Origin: a virus
Taxonomy: Duplodnaviria > Heunggongvirae > Uroviricota > Caudoviricetes
Strand: one strand, 5' to 3'
DNA: 37,504 nucleotides
Virus record (IMG/VR): IMGVR_UViG_649989947_000021
Numbering within the stretch: position 1 is the stretch's first letter; each line of letters begins with the position of its first letter. The notes beneath the pieces were generated by a model. The model had not been told where the DNA came from and did not search any database. It was given only the letters and a program-made list of their open reading frames with translations. Positions 5,973 to 37,504 of this stretch are shown here, piece by piece. The position numbers and the translations under genes are program-made.

Positions 5973-6671
5973 TTACTGCGAAAGTTTGTTAATGGAAAGG
6001 AAGCCGCCAAAGTTGCCGACGTTATTGCGAAACTTACAGCCGCTCAGGCATTTGCTGCATTTATCCTTCGTGATATCGGACGTCGGCTGGTCATATTCAT
6101 CCGCGACAGCCGGACCGTGATAACCACACTCATCACCGCGATAGGTCCAGGTGCAGGTGTTGGCCAGCATGATACGCCCCGGAAAAACAGCACCATCCGT
6201 TTCCGTCGGTGTGGACAACACAAAGGAGGCACTGACCGCACTCAGTTCGCTGCACTGCTCGATGCGCCAGCGGCTGATCACCTCCTGCTCCGGATCGGCG
6301 TCGCTGTTTCCGTTGACGAAGTTCACCGCATCCAGAAAACGGGCGTAAACCTTACGCCTGACCACCGTTCCGCCGACCAGACTCTGCAGGTCTTCCGCCA
6401 TCCCCGTGACCATGCCGTGCAGGTTAGAAACCGTCAGTGTCGGACGGGCAGCACTGCCCTTGCCGTTCAGTTCAAATCCTGTCCCCTGAATGGGGTATGC
6501 CTGATACTGCCGCCCCTGCCAGGTAACCGGCTCACCTTTTTCGTTCTGCTCATTACAGAAAAAATAACGTTCACCACCGACCTCTGTCAGATCGATTTCC
6601 CAGAGCACCACCTGGGCTGACTGAGTGAGGCGTGTCGTCTCATGATGTGTTTCCTGTGGAATATCCTGCAT
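5973..6671 (-). CDS. L: minor tail protein L
   Basis: 232-aa ORF MQDIPQETHHETTRLTQSAQVVLWEIDLTEVGGERYFFCNEQ..., lambda L-like by recall. Confidence 0.9.
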   Translation of the reverse strand: MQDIPQETHHETTRLTQSAQVVLWEIDLTEVGGERYFFCNEQNEKGEPVTWQGRQYQAYPIQGTGFELNGKGSAARPTLTVSNLHGMVTGMAEDLQSLVGGTVVRRKVYARFLDAVNFVNGNSDADPEQEVISRWRIEQCSELSAVSASFVLSTPTETDGAVFPGRIMLANTCTWTYRGDECGYHGPAVADEYDQPTSDITKDKCSKCLSGCKFRNNVGNFGGFLSINKLSQ

Positions 6672-20415: not shown

Positions 20416-20883
20416 CTACTTAATGCGCTGGGTGCGGATATATTCCTGCGCCCCTTCCAGTTGCTTCTGCATCGTCATCAACCGTTCTCTGAGGGTGAAA
20501 TAATCCCGTTCAGCGGTGTCTGCCAGTCGGGGGCTGGTTGCATTATCCATGCTGGTGGGTCCGGTGGCTTCACGCACGGCTGCGGAGCAACTGGCATTGA
20601 CCCGCAGGCGCTTACGACCAGCGGCAACATCAGCGCGCAGAGTTTCATTTTCAGTTTTCGCATCGGCTAACTCCTTCGTGTATTTTGCATCGATCGCAGC
20701 AACATCACGCTGACGCTGCTGCATGTCAGCGATGGTGGCGGTCGCCTGCTTCAGCTCACTGACTTTTTTATCACGCTGTTCTTTGTAGGCGATGGCGTTA
20801 TCACGGTAATGATTAACAGCCCATGACAGGCAGGCGATAATGCAGATAACCAGAGCGGAGATAATAACGGTTACCCTGCTCAT
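20416..20883 (-). CDS. Rz: i-spanin Rz
   Basis: [39 protein letters not shown]..., lambda Rz-like; ATGA overlap with the R stop. Confidence 0.9.
20478..20663 (-). CDS. Rz1: o-spanin Rz1 (lipoprotein) embedded in Rz in another frame
   Basis: [22 protein letters not shown]...[29 protein letters not shown] with lipobox and proline-rich region. Confidence 0.8.
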
Positions 20884-21377
20884 TGTTGCCCCCACAAACA
20901 GACTTCACGCTCAATCTCGCGGCGAGTCATCAGCCCTTTCCATTGCTTACCGCCAGCGTATGTCCAGCGCCGTAGCTGATCACATGCGCCTTTGATATCG
21001 CCCTGGTTTATTTTGCGAAGAAGCGTCGATGTTCTGAAATTGCCAGCGCCCACGTTGTAAACGAACGAGTAAAGAGCGCCGCGCGTTGTTTCCGGTATAT
21101 CGACGTTGATGTACGGGTTAATTTGTCTGGCGACCGTGGCAAGGTCTTTATTCAGGAGGGCTTTGCATTCTGCTTCGGTATACGTTTTACCGAGCATAAT
21201 GTCTTTTCCGGTGTGCCCGTAACATACAGTCCATACACCAACGATATCTTTATATGGTATGTAGCTGACGCCTTCCAGACCATCGTTACCACTTGGGCCA
21301 GTGATTAACACAGATGCTATAGCAATAGCCCCGCCACCAATAGCCGCAGCAACGGCTTTTCGTAATGATGGAGGCAT
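20880..21377 (-). CDS. R: SAR endolysin R (phage lysozyme with signal-anchor-release N-terminus)
   Basis: [44 protein letters not shown]..., phage-21 R-type by recall. Confidence 0.9.
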
Positions 21378-21592
21378 TATTCACCTCTCGCAGCCTTACG
21401 CTTGTCTTCTCTGATTTTGAAGTACAGATTTGTCAGGTAAGTCAGAAAGCCCAGAACCAGACTTCCCAGCACACCAATCGCAGCCCACTGTGACGGACTG
21501 ACCTGATCAAGCCACTGTAAAAACCAGTAGCCAGCACTACCAGCGGATGTTCCGTAGGCAATGCCAGTAGAGATTTTGTCCATTGATTTCAT
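21377..21592 (-). CDS. S: pinholin S (phage-21 type) with dual-start motif
   Basis: 71-aa [74 protein letters not shown]; Met1-Lys-Ser-Met4 dual start; GGAGG ribosome-binding site. Confidence 0.9.
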
Positions 21593-22560: not shown

Positions 22561-23889
22561 CTGAGAGATCCCCTCATAATTTCCCCAAAGCGTAACCATG
22601 TGTGAATAAATTTTGAGCTAGTAGGGTTGCAGCCACGAGTAAGTCTTCCCTTGTTATTGTGTAGCCAGAATGCCGCAAAACTTCCATGCCTAAGCGAACT
22701 GTTGAGAGTACGTTTCGATTTCTGACTGTGTTAGCCTGGAAGTGCTTGTCCCAACCTTGTTTCTGAGCATGAACGCCCGCAAGCCAACATGTTAGTTGAA
22801 GCATCAGGGCGATTAGCAGCATGATATCAAAACGCTCTGAGCTGCTCGTTCGGCTATGGCGTAGGCCTAGTCCGTAGGCAGGACTTTTCAAGTCTCGGAA
22901 GGTTTCTTCAATCTGCATTCGCTTCGAATAGATATTAACAAGTTGTTTGGGTGTTCGAATTTCAACAGGTAAGTTAGTTGCTAGAACCCATGGCTCCTTT
23001 GCCGACGCTGAGTAGATTTTAGGTGACGGGTGGTGACAATGAGTCCGTGTCGAGCGCTGATTTTTTCGGCCTTTAGAGCGAGATTTATACAATAGAATTT
23101 GGCATGAGATTGGATTGCTTTTAGTCAGCCTCTTATAGCCTAAAGTCTTTGAGTGACTAGATGACATATCATGTAAGTTGCTGATAGGTTTCCAGTTTTC
23201 CGCTCCTAGGTCTGCATATTGTACTTTTCCTCTTACTCGACTTAACCAGTACCAACCCAGCTTCTCAACGGATTTATACCATGGCACTTTAAAGCCAGCA
23301 TCACTGACAATGAGCGGTGTGGTGTTACTCGGTAGAATGCTCGCAAGGTCGGCTAGAAATTGGTCATGAGCTTTCTTTGAACATTGCTCTGAAAGCGGGA
23401 ACGCTTTCTCATAAAGAGTAACAGAACGACCGTGTAGTGCGACTGAAGCTCGCAATACCATAAGTCGTTTTTGCTCACGAATATCAGACCAGTCAACAAG
23501 TACAATGGGCATCGTATTGCCCGAACAGATAAAGCTAGCATGCCAACGGTATACAGCGAGTCGCTCTTTGTGGAGGTGACGATTACCTAACAATCGGTCG
23601 ATTCGTTTGATGTTATGTTTTGTTCTCGCTTTGGTTGGCAGGTTACGGCCAAGTTCGGTAAGAGTGAGAGTTTTACAGTCAAGTAATGCGTGGCAAGCCA
23701 ACGTTAAGCTGTTGAGTCGTTTTAAGTGTAATTCGGGGCAGAATTGGTAAAGAGAGTCGTGTAAAATATCGAGTTCGCACATCTTGTTGTCTGATTATTG
23801 ATTTTTCGCGAAACCATTTGATCATATGACAAGATGTGTATCCACCTTAACTTAATGATTTTTACCAAAATCATTAGGGGATTCATCAG
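22561..23889 (-). mobile_element. IS10 insertion sequence (IS4 family), 1329 bp
   Basis: Inside end CTGAGAGATCCCCTCATAATTTCCCC at 22561 and outside end (reverse complement) CTGATGAATCCCCTAATGATTTTGGTAAAAATCATTAAG ending at 23889; full 402-aa transposase; 9-bp flanking direct repeats. Confidence 0.95.
22574..23782 (-). CDS. tnp: IS10 transposase
   Basis: 402-aa ORF MCELDILHDSLYQFCPELHLKRLNSLTLACHALLDCKTLTLTELGRNLPTKARTKHNIKRIDRLLGN..., IS10 transposase by recall. Confidence 0.95.
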   Translation of the reverse strand: MCELDILHDSLYQFCPELHLKRLNSLTLACHALLDCKTLTLTELGRNLPTKARTKHNIKRIDRLLGNRHLHKERLAVYRWHASFICSGNTMPIVLVDWSDIREQKRLMVLRASVALHGRSVTLYEKAFPLSEQCSKKAHDQFLADLASILPSNTTPLIVSDAGFKVPWYKSVEKLGWYWLSRVRGKVQYADLGAENWKPISNLHDMSSSHSKTLGYKRLTKSNPISCQILLYKSRSKGRKNQRSTRTHCHHPSPKIYSASAKEPWVLATNLPVEIRTPKQLVNIYSKRMQIEETFRDLKSPAYGLGLRHSRTSSSERFDIMLLIALMLQLTCWLAGVHAQKQGWDKHFQANTVRNRNVLSTVRLGMEVLRHSGYTITREDLLVAATLLAQNLFTHGYALGKL

Positions 23890-29780: not shown

Positions 29781-30053
29781 TCATTCGTTTTTCATAACTG
29801 CCGCATTTGTGGCTGTGTGACTTCTACGTAACAAATCAGGGATTGCATCTTCAGGATGGGGATAAAGATCTGGTCTTAACCCATGAGGAGTAACTTTCCA
29901 TTCCACAACTTCACATACACGCAAGACGAAACGAGCAGGAATTGTTCTTTTTGAAAACCATTGGTTCACAGCTTGCGGCGTAACGCCTAGATTTCGCGCT
30001 ATGGCATTTTGTGCAATTAGCTCACGAAGTGCGTCGTAATCATTTCCTTTCAT
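29781..30053 (-). CDS. cro: Cro-like HTH repressor (YdaS-like)
   Basis: 90-aa ORF MKGNDYDALRELIAQNAIARNLGVTPQAVNQWFSKRTIP... with helix-turn-helix; divergent from cI across an operator region. Confidence 0.7.
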   Translation of the reverse strand: MKGNDYDALRELIAQNAIARNLGVTPQAVNQWFSKRTIPARFVLRVCEVVEWKVTPHGLRPDLYPHPEDAIPDLLRRSHTATNAAVMKNE

Positions 30054-30187
30054 CGCAACCCACCAATCTAAACTTTATAAATTCAAGATTACATCAAGTT
30101 TAAATTAACATGCAAGTCCACAAAAGATCGAATACACTAAAATCAAGTAAAAATTTATCGAAACCAAGTAACCAGCAAGGATTAACA
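30054..30187. promoter_or_regulatory. OR-like region with divergent promoters and repeated AATCAAGT-type motifs
   Basis: Intergenic between cro-like (minus) and cI (plus); repeated CAAGT-containing motifs including the 13-mer AAATCAAGTAAAA at 30140..30152; candidate minus-strand promoter -35 TTGCAT (30115..30110), 16-bp spacer, -10 TGTAAT (30093..30088). Confidence 0.45.
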
Positions 30188-30877
30188 ATGAAAAACTTAA
30201 AGAGCACTGAAAATCGAATTACAAAGCTGCTACAGGAGAAAGGCTGGAGCCAAGCAGAGCTGGCCCGAAAATTAGGTGTCAGCGCACAGTCCGTACAGTA
30301 CTGGACAACAGGAAAAACATTTCCAAGGGGAAACCGGCTTGCCCAGTTATCCGAAATAAGTGGTTATCCGCAATCGTGGTTTTTAGGAGAAATCACGTCA
30401 CGGCAGTTCTCTTCAAAGGAAAAACATCAAGCAAGAACTGACAGTGTGGTCTTTAACGTGCTCGATGTTGAGTTTAGTTGCGGCGATGGAACACATGTCC
30501 GTGGGGACTTTATCGATGTAGTTCGCTCAATCGAGCTTGATCCTGAATATGCCCGTCGCCTTGTTGGCAATAGAGCATTTCAAAACATAGAGATTGGTAA
30601 CGCAAGAGGAGATAGTATGGCTCCAACAATAGCCCCAGGAGATCTTCTTTTTCTCGATAAAACAGTGAATTACTTTGATGGTGATGGCATTTATGCTTTT
30701 TGCTTTGATGGTGAATGCTACGTCAAAAGATTACAAAAGATAGGAAGTAAAATCATGGTGTTATCTGATAACCCAAATTACCAATCCTGGAGCATTGAAA
30801 AAGATGCTCTTGAGCTGCTTTATATCCAATCGAAGGTAATCTCATCTGTTCCATTCAATATAAATAGATTTGGTTAA
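30188..30877 (+). CDS. cI: CI-like repressor (HTH_XRE N-terminus plus S24 LexA-like autopeptidase C-terminus)
   Basis: HTH LLQEKGWSQAELARKLGVSAQSVQYW; C-terminal GDSMAPTI ... K motif; start set at ATG 30188 with AGGA upstream; an alternative upstream ATG at 30110 exists. Confidence 0.85.
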   Translation: MKNLKSTENRITKLLQEKGWSQAELARKLGVSAQSVQYWTTGKTFPRGNRLAQLSEISGYPQSWFLGEITSRQFSSKEKHQARTDSVVFNVLDVEFSCGDGTHVRGDFIDVVRSIELDPEYARRLVGNRAFQNIEIGNARGDSMAPTIAPGDLLFLDKTVNYFDGDGIYAFCFDGECYVKRLQKIGSKIMVLSDNPNYQSWSIEKDALELLYIQSKVISSVPFNINRFG

Positions 30878-30939
30878 TTATTGATTATTAAAGAAAAATT
30901 TACAAATCAAGTAAAAGAGACGCAGAAATCAATTTTTTC

Positions 30940-30969
30940 TTGACAACTCCATCAATCAAGATCTAACAT
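30940..30969 (+). promoter_or_regulatory. PL-like early-left promoter
   Basis: -35 TTGACA (30940..30945), 18-bp spacer, -10 TAACAT (30964..30969); flanked by AATCAAGT-type motifs including AAATCAAGTAAAA at 30904..30916. Confidence 0.45.
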
Positions 30970-31023
30970 CACACCATCAATTTTGACTTGATTTATTGTT
31001 AATTTTAAATTGATGGTGATTCA

Positions 31024-32812: not shown

Positions 32813-33391
32813 ATGATTAATTCAACCATTACCCCTGAACCTACATTAACAGGCATCCGTTTTGGTAATCGAATTATTGGTTATTCAACTGCGGTTCGCC
32901 AGATCGACAACGGTAACTATGACAAACGAATTCCGGACGGGCTCGATCTGATAGCTTGCATTATGGAAGGGATTGAAAGCGGCTGGTTTATGCCGTGTAT
33001 TGAAAAACAAATCATCCTATGGCGCTGGCTTGTTGTCGCCGTGTTCATTGCTGAGGAGCAGGAGAAGAACGGGACTGTCGATGTTCAGAATGACAAGGGC
33101 GGCGTAGATACAGCCGTTGTATACACAGGAAAACCCGGTTCAATCAGCATTTATCCATGGTCTGAGCGCTTCGCGCTCGCTAACCATATCGAGGCGGGCG
33201 CAATTGAAAAATACGGGCCTGACGTTGGCCAGCAGATGGCGCTGCGTATGTATCAGGACATGGTTGTAACTGACGAGAAATGCGGATTCAGGCTGTCAGC
33301 GATGGGCCGGGAGGGACTCAACATACTACATGACAGCTTCATTGAACTGATTCAGAAAGACGGTATGCCAGACATGCCGGTTATGCACTGA
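32813..33391 (+). CDS. hypothetical protein
   Basis: 192-aa ORF with GGAG 6 nt upstream of ATG 32813. Confidence 0.55.
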   Translation: MINSTITPEPTLTGIRFGNRIIGYSTAVRQIDNGNYDKRIPDGLDLIACIMEGIESGWFMPCIEKQIILWRWLVVAVFIAEEQEKNGTVDVQNDKGGVDTAVVYTGKPGSISIYPWSERFALANHIEAGAIEKYGPDVGQQMALRMYQDMVVTDEKCGFRLSAMGREGLNILHDSFIELIQKDGMPDMPVMH

Positions 33392-33402
33392 GGTGGACGA
33401 AA

Positions 33403-34149
33403 ATGAACATAGTAACGATCAATAACAAACAGCTTCCGGCAGTCGAATATCGCGGTCAGCGTGTTGTGACGCTGGCGATGATTGATGAAGTCCACCAGCG
33501 ACCGGAAGGAACAGCGCGTGCAGCATTCAACCGAAACCGTGAGCATTTCATCAGCGGTGTGGATTATGCCGAATTAGGTGCGGACGTAATACGTACGGAC
33601 CTCCCGGAAGGAACATTCTCTAAATTTGCACCATCAGGGATTGTACTTTTTGAATCAGGTTACCTGATGTTGACGAAGCCATTCAATGACGCCCTTGCCT
33701 GGCAGGTTCAGCGCGAACTGGTTAACAGCTACTTCCGCACTCGCACACCGCTAACGGAAATCGAGATGATCGCTGCGATAGCCGCCGACGCTGTTCGTCA
33801 ACAGAAGCGCCTGAATCATGTGGAAGAACAGCTCGAAACAGTCACAGAAGCGGTGGAAACCATCAAACGCGGAAATATGCGCGCCGGATATGTCGGTTAT
33901 CGCCAGGTGGTCGCCAAAAGCGGAATGACTGATGCTAAGTGCCGCAATCTGGTCAATGCCTACAGCATCCCAACCGATACGCACGAATTTATGACACCAG
34001 ATGGTCTTCTTTCGCGCCGGGCTATCGTGGAGCTGGAGCCATTCATGAAAGCATTTCATCAGATGATGTCAGAGGCAGAGCCACGTGGTACCCGCTGGTA
34101 TCACCCGAAGATGGGGCTGTTTCAGGTGATTGGTTGGGAGGGTAAATAA
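33403..34149 (+). CDS. ORF6N-domain protein (antirepressor-like)
   Basis: N-terminal AVEYRGQRVVTLAMIDEVHQRPEGTARAAFNRNREHFISGVDYAEL resembles the ORF6N/Bro-N-type domain by recall; GAGGTGG upstream. Confidence 0.5.
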   Translation: MNIVTINNKQLPAVEYRGQRVVTLAMIDEVHQRPEGTARAAFNRNREHFISGVDYAELGADVIRTDLPEGTFSKFAPSGIVLFESGYLMLTKPFNDALAWQVQRELVNSYFRTRTPLTEIEMIAAIAADAVRQQKRLNHVEEQLETVTEAVETIKRGNMRAGYVGYRQVVAKSGMTDAKCRNLVNAYSIPTDTHEFMTPDGLLSRRAIVELEPFMKAFHQMMSEAEPRGTRWYHPKMGLFQVIGWEGK

Positions 34150-34487
34150 TGTCACTCATTACACAAAATTTCCGCCTCAATGCGCTGGCAAATCAGTATG
34201 CGGCGGCACTGCACAACCACATATCCGCCACCAGCGGTGGTCATTTCCTGATTAATGTCAATGGGCAATCCATACGAGTAAACATCATCGGTGGGGTTAA
34301 AGGCATCAGGGACTTAATCGATGGTTATGCTCTGAAGGCTATCAAAGAAAATTACCCCCAATGGGAAGCCGTTGGTATTCAACTGTTAAGCAAATGCGTT
34401 CGTGGAAACGAGCTGACGCAAAGCGGCAAAGAAATCTGGCAGAGCATGGTCAACGACATGAGCGATACCGTTATGGGGAACATGTAA
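34149..34487 (+). CDS. hypothetical protein
   Basis: 112-aa ORF; TAATG overlap with the previous gene. Confidence 0.5.
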   Translation: MSLITQNFRLNALANQYAAALHNHISATSGGHFLINVNGQSIRVNIIGGVKGIRDLIDGYALKAIKENYPQWEAVGIQLLSKCVRGNELTQSGKEIWQSMVNDMSDTVMGNM

Positions 34488-34709
34488 ATGAAAATCCAAT
34501 ACCAGGACTATGGCGCCGTAGCGAACATCGTGATCACCAGTTCCTGCCTGACATTGCAAAAGCATAACCGCGTTGTTGATGCGGTGCTGTTTAATGTACA
34601 GGGGATCTCTGAAAACCGCAGCGGCTTTTTCTGGGTTAAGTCATCGTTGTCAGGAAAAACACGCGACATCCTGCGCGCCTACAAAATCGTACAGCGGGAG
34701 GCAAAGTGA
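34488..34709 (+). CDS. hypothetical protein
   Basis: 73-aa ORF starting right after the previous stop. Confidence 0.45.
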   Translation: MKIQYQDYGAVANIVITSSCLTLQKHNRVVDAVLFNVQGISENRSGFFWVKSSLSGKTRDILRAYKIVQREAK

Positions 34710-34804
34710 TGAAGTCATTCCTCCTGTCCATACTGTTTAGTCTGCTGCTGGCGTCCGTCGTTTTCGGTACGCTGATTGAATATAAATTTTTAATGAATTA
34801 CTGA
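34709..34804 (+). CDS. 31-aa hydrophobic single-helix micro-protein
   Basis: GGGAGG then 8 nt then ATG overlapping the previous stop (TGATG); encodes MKSFLLSILFSLLLASVVFGTLIEYKFLMNY; below the ORF-track size cutoff. Confidence 0.45.
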   Translation: MKSFLLSILFSLLLASVVFGTLIEYKFLMNY

Positions 34805-34812
34805 GGTGCGGG

Positions 34813-34968
34813 GTGGGCAAGATCAAAAACCCAGTTGTACTTATCCATAAGCGAGAAAATAGTGACTCCTACGCCGTTACAATCACCTGCGGTAGCCAGA
34901 ACTATCACGACGCCGTTCTGATGGCGTCGATGGAACTGGATATGAGTGACGATGATGTCGATACCTAG
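34813..34968 (+). CDS. possible 51-aa acidic small protein
   Basis: GTG start 5 nt after GAGG; MGKIKNPVVLIHKRENSDSYAVTITCGSQNYHDAVLMASMELDMSDDDVDT; fills the gap to the next gene. Confidence 0.3.
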   Translation: MGKIKNPVVLIHKRENSDSYAVTITCGSQNYHDAVLMASMELDMSDDDVDT

Positions 34969-34986
34969 AGTAAAACAGGCTATTAC

Positions 34987-35442
34987 ATGGCTGAAGAAAT
35001 CGAGCGACTGAAACAAGCACTTTCCGCTGCGGAAAATAATCTGATTGATTCCGAATGCCTCGTAGCTGAATTAAGCAAAGCAAAGGATCACGCATATGGG
35101 CTGGTCGACACATACGACTGGCAACGTCAGCGTCTCCACGCAGCCGCTGAGAAAGTCCTCAAATGGTGCAGACAAGAAGCTGAACACCGTACCGGCGATC
35201 CAGAGAAAGCAGAAAACTATGCGTGCGTTAAAGAACTACGCGACGCATTAACTTTTTGCAAAAGTTCTGAAAGCAGCAAGAAGAAAGGCCTGACTATCAC
35301 CCTGCCCGATATCACATCAAAGGCATTCTGGAGCGGTACCGGAAAAAACGCAAAATTCCATCCGGCAACCTATAAACGCTGGGTGAAAGAAGCTATTAAA
35401 CGGGATTGTGTTATTGCCGGGATCGGCGTGGAGGTGAAATGA
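34987..35442 (+). CDS. hypothetical protein
   Basis: 151-aa ORF MAEEIERLKQALSAAENNLIDSE... Confidence 0.55.
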   Translation: MAEEIERLKQALSAAENNLIDSECLVAELSKAKDHAYGLVDTYDWQRQRLHAAAEKVLKWCRQEAEHRTGDPEKAENYACVKELRDALTFCKSSESSKKKGLTITLPDITSKAFWSGTGKNAKFHPATYKRWVKEAIKRDCVIAGIGVEVK

Positions 35443-35525
35443 TGAATTGGCCTGAAGCATTCACCGCAGTAGGAGTTGCAATAGCGGTGGCATTTATTCT
35501 GTATTCGCTTTTCCGCTGGGGATAA
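35439..35525 (+). CDS. 28-aa hydrophobic micro-protein
   Basis: GGAGGTG then ATGATG overlapping the previous stop; encodes MMNWPEAFTAVGVAIAVAFILYSLFRWG. Confidence 0.4.
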   Translation: MMNWPEAFTAVGVAIAVAFILYSLFRWG

Positions 35526-35529
35526 AGGA

Positions 35530-35772
35530 ATGTTCGCTCTGATTCAACGTGGTCAGATATACACCGATAGTGCTGGCTACCCGATAAAAATTATTCGCTG
35601 CATAAACAACACTGTGTTGTACAGAAGAATGGATGGGCGAACACAGTCGGTAAAAATAAACGATTTTAATGAACTGTTTGAACGGATCGATCACCAGGAA
35701 TACCGACAAATTCTGGCAGAAACAGAGCAGGAAGCTCATCTGAAAAAATTACGAGCCATGAAAAGGAAGTAA
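35530..35772 (+). CDS. hypothetical protein
   Basis: 80-aa ORF with AAGGA upstream. Confidence 0.5.
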   Translation: MFALIQRGQIYTDSAGYPIKIIRCINNTVLYRRMDGRTQSVKINDFNELFERIDHQEYRQILAETEQEAHLKKLRAMKRK

Positions 35773-35775
35773 AGA

Positions 35776-35922
35776 ATGAATAAAGCATTTGAACGATGGG
35801 TCCACCAGCGTTACGGCAATCGCTATGACCTGACACGAGATGTTGACGGTTTCTACTGTCGTGAAATTGTGAAACGAATGTTTGAAGTGTGGTGCCACTG
35901 CCGTGGGCTGAGTGTTGTGTGA
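35776..35922 (+). CDS. 48-aa Cys-rich small protein (possible zinc-binding)
   Basis: AAGGAAG 6 nt upstream of ATG; MNKAFERWVHQRYGNRYDLTRDVDGFYCREIVKRMFEVWCHCRGLSVV. Confidence 0.35.
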   Translation: MNKAFERWVHQRYGNRYDLTRDVDGFYCREIVKRMFEVWCHCRGLSVV

Positions 35923-35929
35923 GGTTGGC

Positions 35930-36184
35930 ATGCAGACAATCATCTATCAGATAACCCCCAGCAAATGGTGTACGGAGAGAGTCCTCATTGCATCAACAGG
36001 GCTAAAGCCTGGCACCATTGAGCGGGCAAGAAGAAAGTCATGGATGCAGGGAAAAGAATACCGCCATTACGCTGTAGAAGGTGATCCGGGGCACTACAGT
36101 GAATGCCTGTACAACATCGAAGAAATTATGCGATGGATCGAAAACCAGAAACAACCAGGTGCCAAAAATGCAAGTTCCGGTTAA
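35930..36184 (+). CDS. xis: putative excisionase
   Basis: 84-aa ORF MQTIIYQITPSKWCTERVLIASTGLKPGTIERARRKSW... immediately upstream of int; GAGG 5 nt upstream; assignment by position and size. Confidence 0.5.
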   Translation: MQTIIYQITPSKWCTERVLIASTGLKPGTIERARRKSWMQGKEYRHYAVEGDPGHYSECLYNIEEIMRWIENQKQPGAKNASSG

Positions 36185-36217
36185 CCTGTTAATGCTCCTG
36201 GACGTCTGGGAGGTTTA

Positions 36218-37504
36218 ATGAGTAACGCATCATACCCGACAGGCGTTGAAAACCATGGAGGATCACTCCGTATATGGTTTCACTATAATGGCAAACGTGT
36301 CAGAGAAAACCTCGGTGTTCCTGACACAGCCAAAAACCGGAAGATCGCTGGTGAACTTCGCACTTCCGTTTGTTTTGCAATCAGAATGGGGAGTTTCGAC
36401 TACGCCGCGCAGTTCCCTAATTCCCCTAACCTGAAACACTTTGGTCTGGGAAAAAGAGAGATAACCGTTAAGGCACTTTCGGAAAAATGGTTGGACCTTA
36501 AGAAAATTGAGATTTGTGCGAATGCACTTAACCGTTACCAGTCAGTAATTAAAAACATGTTACCAATGTTAGGTGAAAAAAAACTGGTTTCATCCATAAC
36601 AAAAGAGGATTTACTTTTCGTAAGGAGAGATTTGTTGACCGGTTACCAAAAGCTTTCTAATGGAAAGACTTCTTCCATAAAAGGGCGCTCAGTGGTCACG
36701 GTAAACTACTATATGACAACCATAGCTGGAATGTTTCAATTTGCAACAGATAATGGTTATACCTCAGGAAACCCATTTAACGGTCTGGCTCCCTTAAAAA
36801 AGTCCAAGGTAAAACCAGATCCTCTCACCCGTGACGAATTTATTCGTTTTATTGAGGCTTGCCGTCATCAACAAACAAAAAACCTGTGGATTCTCGCTGT
36901 ATACACGGGTATTCGTCACGGGGAGTTGGTATCGCTGGCATGGGAAGATATAGACCTTAAAGCAAGGACTATAACCATCCGTAGAAATTATACAAAACTT
37001 GGCGAATTCACTCCACCAAAAACCGATGCAGGCACCGGAAGGACAATTCATCTGGTTCAACCAGCTATTGATGCTCTTAAAAGCCAGGCGGAAATGACCA
37101 TGCTTGGAAAGCAACATTCTGTAGAGGTGAAGCAGAGGGAATATGGGAGAACTGCTGTGCATAAATGCACTTTTGTTTTTAGTCCTCAGGTAACAAAACA
37201 GCAGCAGTTGTCCGGACCTCACTACAAGGTTGACTCCATCAGGGAGTCATGGACAAGTATCTTAAAACGCGCAGGTCTGAGACACAGAAAATCGTACCAA
37301 TCCAGGCATACTTATGCATGCTGGTCACTTGCCGCAGGAGCTAATCCTAGTTTTATCGCAAGCCAGATGGGCCACACAAACGCACAAATGGTATTCAATG
37401 TTTACGGAGCATGGATGAAAGACAACAATCACGAACAGATAGAACTCCTTAACAAAAGACTATCTGAAAGTGTCCCATGTATGCCCCATAAGAAAGTTGG
37501 GTAA
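36218..37504 (+). CDS. int: tyrosine site-specific integrase
   Basis: 428-aa ORF with C-terminal catalytic-region motifs (...RHTYACWSLAAGANPSFIASQMGHTNAQMVFNVYGAW...); stop codon is the last 3 bases of the window. Confidence 0.9.
   Translation: MSNASYPTGVENHGGSLRIWFHYNGKRVRENLGVPDTAKNRKIAGELRTSVCFAIRMGSFDYAAQFPNSPNLKHFGLGKREITVKALSEKWLDLKKIEICANALNRYQSVIKNMLPMLGEKKLVSSITKEDLLFVRRDLLTGYQKLSNGKTSSIKGRSVVTVNYYMTTIAGMFQFATDNGYTSGNPFNGLAPLKKSKVKPDPLTRDEFIRFIEACRHQQTKNLWILAVYTGIRHGELVSLAWEDIDLKARTITIRRNYTKLGEFTPPKTDAGTGRTIHLVQPAIDALKSQAEMTMLGKQHSVEVKQREYGRTAVHKCTFVFSPQVTKQQQLSGPHYKVDSIRESWTSILKRAGLRHRKSYQSRHTYACWSLAAGANPSFIASQMGHTNAQMVFNVYGAWMKDNNHEQIELLNKRLSESVPCMPHKKVG

Follow-up and report, generated by a model that had tools for sequence, protein, structure and literature searches.

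Small, hydrophobic accessory proteins are well known from temperate phages, and lambda S, T4 Imm and HK97 gp15 exemplify the holin, antiholin and superinfection-exclusion membrane proteins that phages encode. Membrane proteins can be very short, MgtS having 31 amino acids (aa) and AcrZ 49, and the division inhibitor SidA of Caulobacter has just 29. MgtS and AcrZ have been reviewed together with KdpF and CydX as small inner-membrane regulators, and the same review covers the type I toxins Hok/Gef, Ldr, TisB, Ibs, ShoB and ZorO, some of which are prophage-associated (PMC12648545), while lambda Kil and T7 Gp0.4 are small early phage proteins that block FtsZ (PMC11323111). Here we describe a 31-aa micro-protein encoded by a micro open reading frame (micro-ORF) at positions 34709-34804 of a tailed-phage DNA of 37,504 nucleotides (nt; IMG/VR record IMGVR_UViG_649989947_000021), the whole of which is referred to as the window. 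The micro-ORF is a real gene under protein-level purifying selection and behaves as an independent mosaic cassette, and it probably specifies a translationally coupled, single-pass inner-membrane micro-protein that is made early after induction and acts by way of an invariant core, LLL…FG.LIEYKF.

A coding frame under purifying selection

The micro-ORF spans 34709-34804 (+), 96 nt that comprise 31 codons for the product MKSFLLSILFSLLLASVVFGTLIEYKFLMNY and a TGA stop at 34802-34804. Its ATG (34709-34711) overlaps the stop of the upstream gene (TGA, 34707-34709) as TGATG, the letters of the junction at 34690-34718 being CAGCGGGAGGCAAAGTGATGAAGTCA, and both the frame and the overlap, which a first-pass annotation of the window had proposed, were confirmed from the sequence. 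The same annotation had placed a GGGAGG motif 8 nt upstream of the ATG; the motif (34696..34701, +) and its reading as a strong ribosome-binding site hold, but the spacer measures 7 nt, and this Shine-Dalgarno (SD) sequence lies within the last codons (R-E-A) of the upstream gene. In a chance comparison with the 147 ATG-initiated ORFs of 25-45 aa found in all six frames of the window, an SD-like motif and a strongly hydrophobic stretch occur together in only two, namely those starting at 34709 and 35439. What decides against chance is nonetheless conservation.

Within a synteny sample of 86 loci, fetched through the upstream gene, which is 56-100% identical among them (56-73% outside the clade of the window), 44 have the upstream gene followed by an ORF of 30-34 aa whose ATG overlaps its stop, as in MKPFLLSMLFGLLLVAVVFGALIEYKFLMNY from Trabulsiella guamensis and MKSFLMSMLFGLLLVAAIFGALIEYKFMTNFGG from Citrobacter, and 42 are without the micro-ORF, the upstream gene coupling directly to the next gene. 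Independently of synteny, viral contigs were searched with a back-translated DNA pattern for FG[A/T]LIEYKF and metagenomes with a looser pattern; 70 of the 72 viral-contig matches proved to be the same ORF of 28-34 aa, and the 82 metagenome matches comprised 30 intact family members, two cut by contig ends and otherwise chance hits. The frame is intact in more than 100 relatives, and the prediction thereby passed the test that had been set for it at the outset, which was conservation of the reading frame in relatives.

Conservation is moreover seen at the level of codons. Pairwise comparison of 27 distinct DNA versions gave a proportion of synonymous differences (pS) of 0.387 and of non-synonymous differences (pN) of 0.067, a ratio of 0.17, in the micro-ORF frame, whereas pN/pS ranges from 0.38 to 5.1 in the other frames, and stops interrupt both of the other forward frames, +1 and +2, in each of the 27 versions. 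A single antisense frame has no stop in any copy, but its pN/pS is 0.38 as against 0.17, and since its openness is explained by T at codon position 2 together with shared wobble positions, an antisense ORF was rejected. A tree-aware test, in which events were counted by Fitch parsimony on a neighbour-joining tree of 54 distinct DNA versions (20.9 synonymous and 60.1 non-synonymous sites), yielded 107 synonymous versus 78 non-synonymous events, corresponding to a non-synonymous to synonymous rate ratio (dN/dS) of 0.25 (binomial p=3e-20). As copies had been collected by means of the motif at codons 20-27, the test was repeated without those codons and still gave 77 versus 73 events (dN/dS 0.39, p=1e-8); by region, dN/dS is 0.31 for codons 9-19 and 0.72 for the variable codons 3-8. 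The micro-protein is furthermore more strongly conserved than its neighbours.

The notion that the micro-ORF has no peptide function, and is instead a translated ribosome-relay spacer, a recombination-promoting DNA 'linker' or a chance ORF, stems from its location exactly at a mosaic junction, in DNA common to phages with differing flanks, and from the direct coupling of the upstream to the next gene in loci where it is missing, which would make the slot a recombination hot spot. That direct coupling shows, however, that a spacer is unneeded, and the frame-specific constraint (pS 0.39 against pN 0.067) is the opposite of what constraint on DNA or on length alone would produce. A structured RNA was likewise considered and rejected, as neither strand folds significantly better than shuffled sequences (z -1.6 and 0.0) and an Rfam search of 33000-37504 returned nothing relevant. 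A chance ORF, an RNA element and a DNA linker are thus all rejected as explanations on the grounds of codon-level constraint, the lack of an Rfam match, the lack of excess folding and the classification of the family as coding in the Entero67K catalogue described below. Indeed the codon-level analysis has already largely refuted any explanation that dispenses with the peptide, and we consider such explanations very improbable.

Three damaged copies were encountered. In L020 (2722-2800) a 7-nt duplication (TTGAATA) truncates the peptide after E24, in L143 (IMGVR_UViG_2751185945_000008, near 6311) the first 12 codons of the upstream PHROG 1001 gene are fused in frame to the last 16 of the micro-ORF, giving MKIQHQDYGAVAAVVFGALIEYKFLIGF, and L188 has a truncated tail.

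An alignment of 23 variants shows M1, L12, L13, L14, F19, G20, L22, E24, K26 and F27 to be invariant and K2, L9, F10, I23, Y25 and L28 to be conserved in at least 90%, the variable parts being residues 3-8 and the last 2-5 residues, and selection is strongest on L12-L14 and F19-G20-x-L-I-E-Y-K-F. The clade of the window is the odd one out of the family with S11, A15-S16 and T21. The copy of phage LMessi has kept GALIEYKFL and is diverged in its N-terminal half, and the C-terminal membrane-interface motif is therefore the most constrained part of the protein.

The micro-protein consists of one N-terminal Lys, a 20-residue apolar span (F4-I23) and an interfacial tail, E-Y-K-F-L-M-N-Y, of net charge 0, in which E24-Y25-K26-F27 form a juxtamembrane motif. 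The Kyte-Doolittle maximum over 19 residues is 2.52, and the insertion energy is -2.4 kcal/mol by a simple-sum, Hessa-type dG. AlphaFold2 predicts a single continuous helix of residues 2-30 with a predicted local distance difference test (pLDDT) score of 96.6, which is consistent with a membrane helix, yet is a near-trivial outcome for such a hydrophobic sequence. From these predictions we infer membrane insertion and topology, the product being most likely a single-pass inner-membrane protein, and the earlier claim of a genuine hydrophobic micro-protein gene is upheld, with a predicted single helix at 2-30 and a hydrophobic span at F4-I23.

An exhaustive HMMER search of 1.84 billion cluster representatives retrieved only five clusters at E<=1e-3, all of 30-45 aa, and a search with the 47-aa database member P0005 only two near-identical clusters; since all relatives are of 30-45 aa, the possibility that the micro-protein is a fragment or domain of a larger protein is ruled out. 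Profile searches with the micro-protein in Pfam, PHROGs, NCBIfam, PADLOC and PDB gave nothing significant, and a literature search for its motif gave no paper. The suggestion that the gene is unannotated and missed by ORF callers is right as far as PGAP is concerned, which skips the micro-ORF, so that all RefSeq genomes inspected show about 100 nt without a called gene at this place, but it is annotated as a coding sequence (CDS) in Escherichia phage phi467 (CUW01254.1; LN997803.1 28754-28849), in LMessi (XNS37525.1) and in several GenBank E. coli assemblies. The exact peptide is furthermore present in NCBI nr and UniRef (A0AB38GWP0) as 'uncharacterised protein', occurring in 236 contigs, and an I8M variant occurs in 371. 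In Table S2 of the Entero67K catalogue of intergenic small ORFs classified as coding, the family is cluster Citrobacter_76875 with the entry MKPFLLSMLFGLLLVAVVFGALIEYKFLMNY (PMC11188072). The peptide of the window belongs with CUW01254.1, XNS37525.1 and Citrobacter_76875 by full-length identity including the core LLL-x4-FG-x-LIEYKF and by exact match to cluster members; the family entries are identical or 58-97% identical to it, have 30-33 aa and share its position before xis/int. This unnamed family is thus already listed as 'hypothetical' or computational in a few records, without a name or a family model, and as a conserved phage micro-gene omitted by the standard RefSeq pipeline it argues for its own inclusion in curated small-protein model sets.

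Gene junctions, cassette behaviour and the proposed early operon

The upstream neighbour (34488..34709, +) is a 73-aa gene of PHROG 1001, a family of no assigned function (phrog_1001 profile match, E=4e-33). An in-frame GTG at 34706 would extend the micro-protein to 32 aa, but since relatives read CGATG there, the ATG at 34709 is the conserved start. In most relatives the overlap has the form ATGA, TGATG being the form of the window's clade, where a CGA-to-TGA change at 34706-34709 has shortened the upstream protein by one codon (73 vs 74 aa) and thereby turned the ATGA overlap into TGATG and created the in-frame GTG before the ATG. GGGAGG is conserved in relatives that share the upstream gene, and relatives with a different upstream gene have GAAGGAC. 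At the other end the SD-like motif of the next gene, GAGGTG (34803..34808, +), overlaps the micro-ORF stop and precedes a GTG start at 34813. Relatives have equivalent purine-rich motifs across the tail or the stop of the micro-ORF, so that the variable tail coincides with the SD and start of the following gene (GAGGTG in the window, and elsewhere GGAGGG, which encodes -FGG), and tail variants tend to accompany particular downstream junctions.

In predicted folds of nearly all relatives the SD is paired with a pyrimidine run in codons 4-7 of the micro-ORF with a probability of 0.5-1.0, GGGAGG pairing with CCUCCU (codons 4-6) and, in the other junction type, GAAGGA with UCCUUU. Synonymous recodings give almost equal pairing of the SD (mean 0.56-0.88), the native sequence being clearly higher in only two of six tests, and a selected SD-sequestering hairpin was therefore rejected, the occlusion being a by-product of encoding a hydrophobic N-terminus. 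Nevertheless, the predicted occlusion still implies that initiation would depend on ribosomes arriving from upstream, and the PHROG 1001 gene is presumed to be the ribosome donor for such translational coupling.

The position of the micro-ORF was checked in the window, in L004, L161, L162 and LMessi, in RefSeq E. coli and in 70 viral contigs, and its start overlaps the preceding stop within a leftward operon, upstream of a DUF1233 excisionase and an Arm-DNA-bind_2 integrase. At least three unrelated genes occur directly upstream of it, the start/stop overlap being 1-4 nt (ATGA or TGATG) and the SD suitable in each case. These are the PHROG 1001 gene with GGGAGG, a gene for a 117-aa protein ending in ...SHERYSKLKDRK (...KLKDRK) with GAAGGAC, which is ParE family toxin-like in the RefSeq record of L165, and a gene for a 140-aa protein in L162. 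On the downstream side at least seven different genes were found next to it, one of them the excisionase itself. Genes annotated at source as 'ParE family toxin-like protein' are found in the leftward operon of L165 (E. coli DX6, NZ_CP126345.1) at 2273-2586, where the gene is directly 5' of the micro-ORF, and of L162 at 2012-2233.

Mouse-derived E. coli (M8 and related, H17-H21) match the window at 88% only from 34818 onward, directly after the micro-ORF stop, and no feature is annotated under the match in these strains. It follows from this sharp boundary that the ends of the micro-ORF coincide with mosaic breakpoints, and breakpoints at gene ends are the classical mark of a gene module that phages exchange. 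The micro-ORF thus behaves as an independent mosaic cassette, which moves among the lambda-like prophages found in E. coli, Citrobacter and their relatives, a unit exchanged between prophages of Escherichia, Citrobacter and Trabulsiella that include the Stx2f-phage lineage of phi467. No gene within +-2.5 kb tracks its presence in the 44 loci with and the 42 without it, no plasmid copy was found, and the metagenomes provided no new context.

The window region is 99.6% identical to phi467 (LN997803.1) and 95-99.7% identical to prophages of about a dozen complete E. coli genomes. Phi467 is the reference phage converting to Shiga toxin 2f (Stx2f; PMC7366253). It is described as carrying tRNA-Thr, tRNA-Gly and stx2f in the region in which the window has a transposase-like ORF. 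The window itself has no tRNA genes. The ORF in question encodes 402 aa (22574-23782, -) and is flanked by the late-regulator region and the lysis genes, at the place of the stx region of phi467; we take it to resemble an IS10/IS4-type transposase. The prophage of the window accordingly appears to be a relative of phi467 without stx. A reading of the micro-ORF as a Stx2f-phage gene was rejected and no link to Shiga toxin is made, as tRNA genes are lacking and a transposase-like ORF occupies the position of stx.

Replication, lysis and structural genes of the window are on the - strand, and everything from the repressor onward is on the + strand. The repressor is cI-like and of the S24 type (30110-30877, +) and diverges at about 30050-30110 from a Cro-like gene (29781-30053, -). 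It is followed by a cII-like helix-turn-helix gene, small ORFs, an ORF6N anti-repressor-like gene (33403-34149, +), a PHROG 37628 gene (34149-34487, +), the PHROG 1001 gene and the micro-ORF, after which come a PHROG 492 gene (34813..35442, +), DUF4222, a 48-aa gene, the excisionase and the integrase, the genes of this leftward operon abutting or overlapping by 1-4 nt.

The PHROG 492 gene has 209 aa in phi467 and other relatives. In the window it is split into ORFs of 51 and 151 aa by a TGG-to-TAG change (W52*) at 34967 (TAG, 34966-34968), and the same 51-aa truncation is found in L091, L135 and L153, the region being marked as a partial pseudogene by PGAP. A second hydrophobic micro-ORF of the same operon, at 35439-35525 (+), encodes 28 aa, MMNWPEAFTAVGVAIAVAFILYSLFRWG; it has GTGGAGG 5' of it and an ATG that overlaps the stop of the preceding gene (ATGATGA), and is without annotation in phi467. 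Of the fetched loci, 27 have an identical copy, and two diverged versions, MGWPDAFMIVGVAFAVAAMVIWG and MDWPTAFSIVGCAFAIAWLFRS, came out of a crude pattern search.

A candidate early-left (pL-like) promoter region (30904..31015, +) is located downstream of the cI-like gene, with two sigma-70-like sites at 30940-30969 and 30983-31011, and these sites, just 3' of the repressor gene, are the only ones on the strand of the micro-ORF. Operator-like repeats, AAATCAAGTAAAA and its inverse TTTGACTTGATTT, overlap them and occur again in the divergent cI/cro region. Operator-like repeats common to 30093-30152 and 30904-31015 also include CACCATCAATTT/AAATTGATGGTG, and the sharing suggests paired operators of the OR/OL type. 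Admittedly crude scans of both strands found nothing promoter-like near the micro-ORF, no convincing terminator between the pL-like region and the micro-ORF and none after it. By analogy with lambda pL, a repressor-controlled early-left operon would hence carry the micro-ORF, about 3.7 kb downstream of the pL-like region.

Proposed action and competing explanations

Expression time, coupling and target we infer from this setting. In the proposal that we favor, a phi467-like lambdoid prophage would transcribe its leftward operon, which is under repressor control, after induction or infection, and the micro-ORF, having no promoter of its own, would be carried on the pL-like transcript, xis and int following a few genes later. 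Ribosomes that reach the end of the upstream gene would open the predicted SD pairing and re-initiate at the overlapping ATG, and the peptide would be made only when the operon is transcribed. It may then bind and modulate a conserved enterobacterial inner-membrane protein, in the manner of the small regulators of membrane proteins and not as a generic pore. The argument for a host target rests on the invariant core, the specific E-Y-K-F interface motif, the absence of a phage partner and the spread over several enterobacterial genera, and sequence-specific binding of a conserved host inner-membrane component is accordingly put forward as a tentative suggestion. Presumably the micro-protein gives the phage an advantage by way of a host target common to Escherichia, Citrobacter and Trabulsiella, and its identification could open a new way to act on an inner-membrane process by means of a small protein.

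A number of observations nonetheless sit uneasily with this proposal. Conservation on the helix is not one-sided (conservation moment 0.07) and lends no specific support to a single binding interface. Occlusion of the SD, being no stronger than in synonymous recodings, is no evidence of selection for coupling. In Table S2 of PMC11188072 the family representative is nonSignal by SignalP 6.0, SIGNAL_PEPTIDE by Phobius and 'nonTM' in the transmembrane (TM) column, so that the published predictors disagree on membrane anchoring versus cleavage, and the part of the supplements of that paper that was consulted has no transcription, Ribo-seq or AlphaFold-Multimer entry for Citrobacter_76875. Furthermore, the disrupted copies in L020, L143 and L188 together with charged variants of the helix (A15E and G11D) indicate that the gene is dispensable, and the family is rare, occurring in 16-19 of 5426 complete E. 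coli genomes.

The signal-peptide prediction raises the alternative of a cleavable Sec signal that releases a periplasmic or secreted peptide of about 11 aa, A/TLIEYKFLMNY, with for example a signalling or inhibitory role. The sequence does begin with MK and a hydrophobic core, the -3/-1 rule is obeyed by V18-F19-G20, of which F19 and G20 are invariant, the extreme C-terminus differs between lineages, and 14 of 23 members give weak matches to an NCBIfam PhrA pro-peptide (NF033799; best E=0.037). These matches are however below the family cut-off and cover the hydrophobic segment only, the same representative that Phobius scores as a signal peptide is rejected by SignalP 6.0 in the tabulated data (PMC11188072), and variation of the tail is explained without any specificity by its overlap with the SD and junction of the following gene. 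The hydrophobic run moreover extends over 20 residues without a polar c-region and continues past the presumed site (A-L-I), and an uninterrupted run of this kind is more typical of a TM anchor than of a signal peptide. In addition no receptor-like gene of the Rap/AimR type co-occurs, the neighbours being variable. We consequently regard a released peptide as improbable, more so than the toxin discussed next.

A membrane-damaging toxin, the main rival, would insert into the inner membrane, oligomerise and, as type I toxins or holin-like peptides do, dissipate the proton-motive force, so that the host is shut off or killed or the infection aborted. In size, hydrophobicity and helix the micro-protein is typical of such peptides, the small-xxx-small spacings S7xxxG/S11 and A/S16xxxG20 could support helix-helix packing, and tight coupling with SD occlusion would hold the dose low; phage early accessory genes are often toxic as a general rule, and one type of upstream neighbour is annotated as ParE toxin-like. 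The architecture of type I systems is however absent as far as the crude scans show: promoter-like sites are lacking on the sense and the antisense strand near the micro-ORF, Rfam gives no antitoxin RNA, and there is no 5' untranslated region at the micro-ORF, which is instead embedded in an operon by codon overlap. There is likewise no match to an NCBIfam or Pfam toxin family or to a PADLOC defence model, the gene is outside the lysis cassette, pore-formers commonly have polar or charged residues lining the helix and a highly charged tail, both of which are missing here, and the strongest constraint is on a specific juxtamembrane motif and not on bulk hydrophobicity. A toxin of this kind thus seems unlikely.

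Of the roles named in the first-pass annotation, lysis timing is unlikely, since the holin/endolysin/Rz cassette (about 20416-21592) is on the other strand, in another operon and 13 kb away; judged from sequence it consists of a holin-like ORF of 71 aa (21377-21592, -), an endolysin-like ORF (20880-21377, -) and an Rz-like ORF (20416-20895, -). Superinfection exclusion by a protein expressed in the lysogen finds no support in the promoter scans, although read-through expression in lysogens is conceivable, and host killing or host modulation may be possible. The most far-reaching version of the favored host-target proposal is a host-takeover factor, a TM helix made only upon induction whose FG-x-LIEYKF locks onto an inner-membrane machine (e.g. 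divisome, transport or secretion) and arrests or re-programmes the cell. We would call this version rather doubtful; if true, it would make the micro-protein a new kind of phage factor that acts as the 29-aa SidA does in Caulobacter, on a cassette freely swapped between prophages including relatives of Shiga-toxin 2f phages. It should however be mentioned that the family is already catalogued computationally and that nothing indicates a mechanism without precedent.

Comparison with known systems

Like the phage holins and exclusion proteins, the micro-protein is a phage-encoded and probably membrane-embedded protein, those proteins having one or more TM helices, but it is encoded outside the lysis cassette, has no match to a holin PHROG or Pfam family, is without a moron-like autonomous promoter and is much shorter. 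With the type I toxins it has in common that these are small hydrophobic helical peptides, some of them on mobile elements. Their gene organization is however different, since the micro-ORF shows no sign of an antisense RNA or of a promoter or leader of its own, has no match to their families and is coupled to the upstream ORF of an operon. Crude scans for an antisense RNA antitoxin found nothing resembling a promoter on the - strand near the micro-ORF, Rfam gave no match at E<=1, and the antisense strand folded no better than shuffled sequences (z -0.01); there is also no autonomous unit with a regulatory 5' leader, as neither intergenic space nor a promoter is present at the gene in the window and the same holds for all relatives.

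Lambda Kil and T7 Gp0.4 resemble the micro-protein as small, dispensable products of accessory early genes and act on the host, as the micro-protein may, and kil is found in the same kind of operon (pL), but both are soluble and unrelated in sequence, whereas the micro-protein is almost wholly hydrophobic. The small membrane regulators and SidA have in common with it a length below 50 aa, one TM helix (here predicted) and the absence of an enzymatic domain. A larger membrane protein is the presumed binding target of these regulators, and the sequence-specific conservation of the micro-protein's helix and juxtamembrane residues fits that mode of action. There is however no sequence similarity to any of these regulators, and the micro-protein is phage-borne and located in a phage early operon, where it is probably translated by coupling. 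Taken together, the comparison with described families suggests a phage small membrane accessory protein that resembles the membrane regulators in its probable action and lambda Kil in its operon position, while being a member of none of these groups by sequence.

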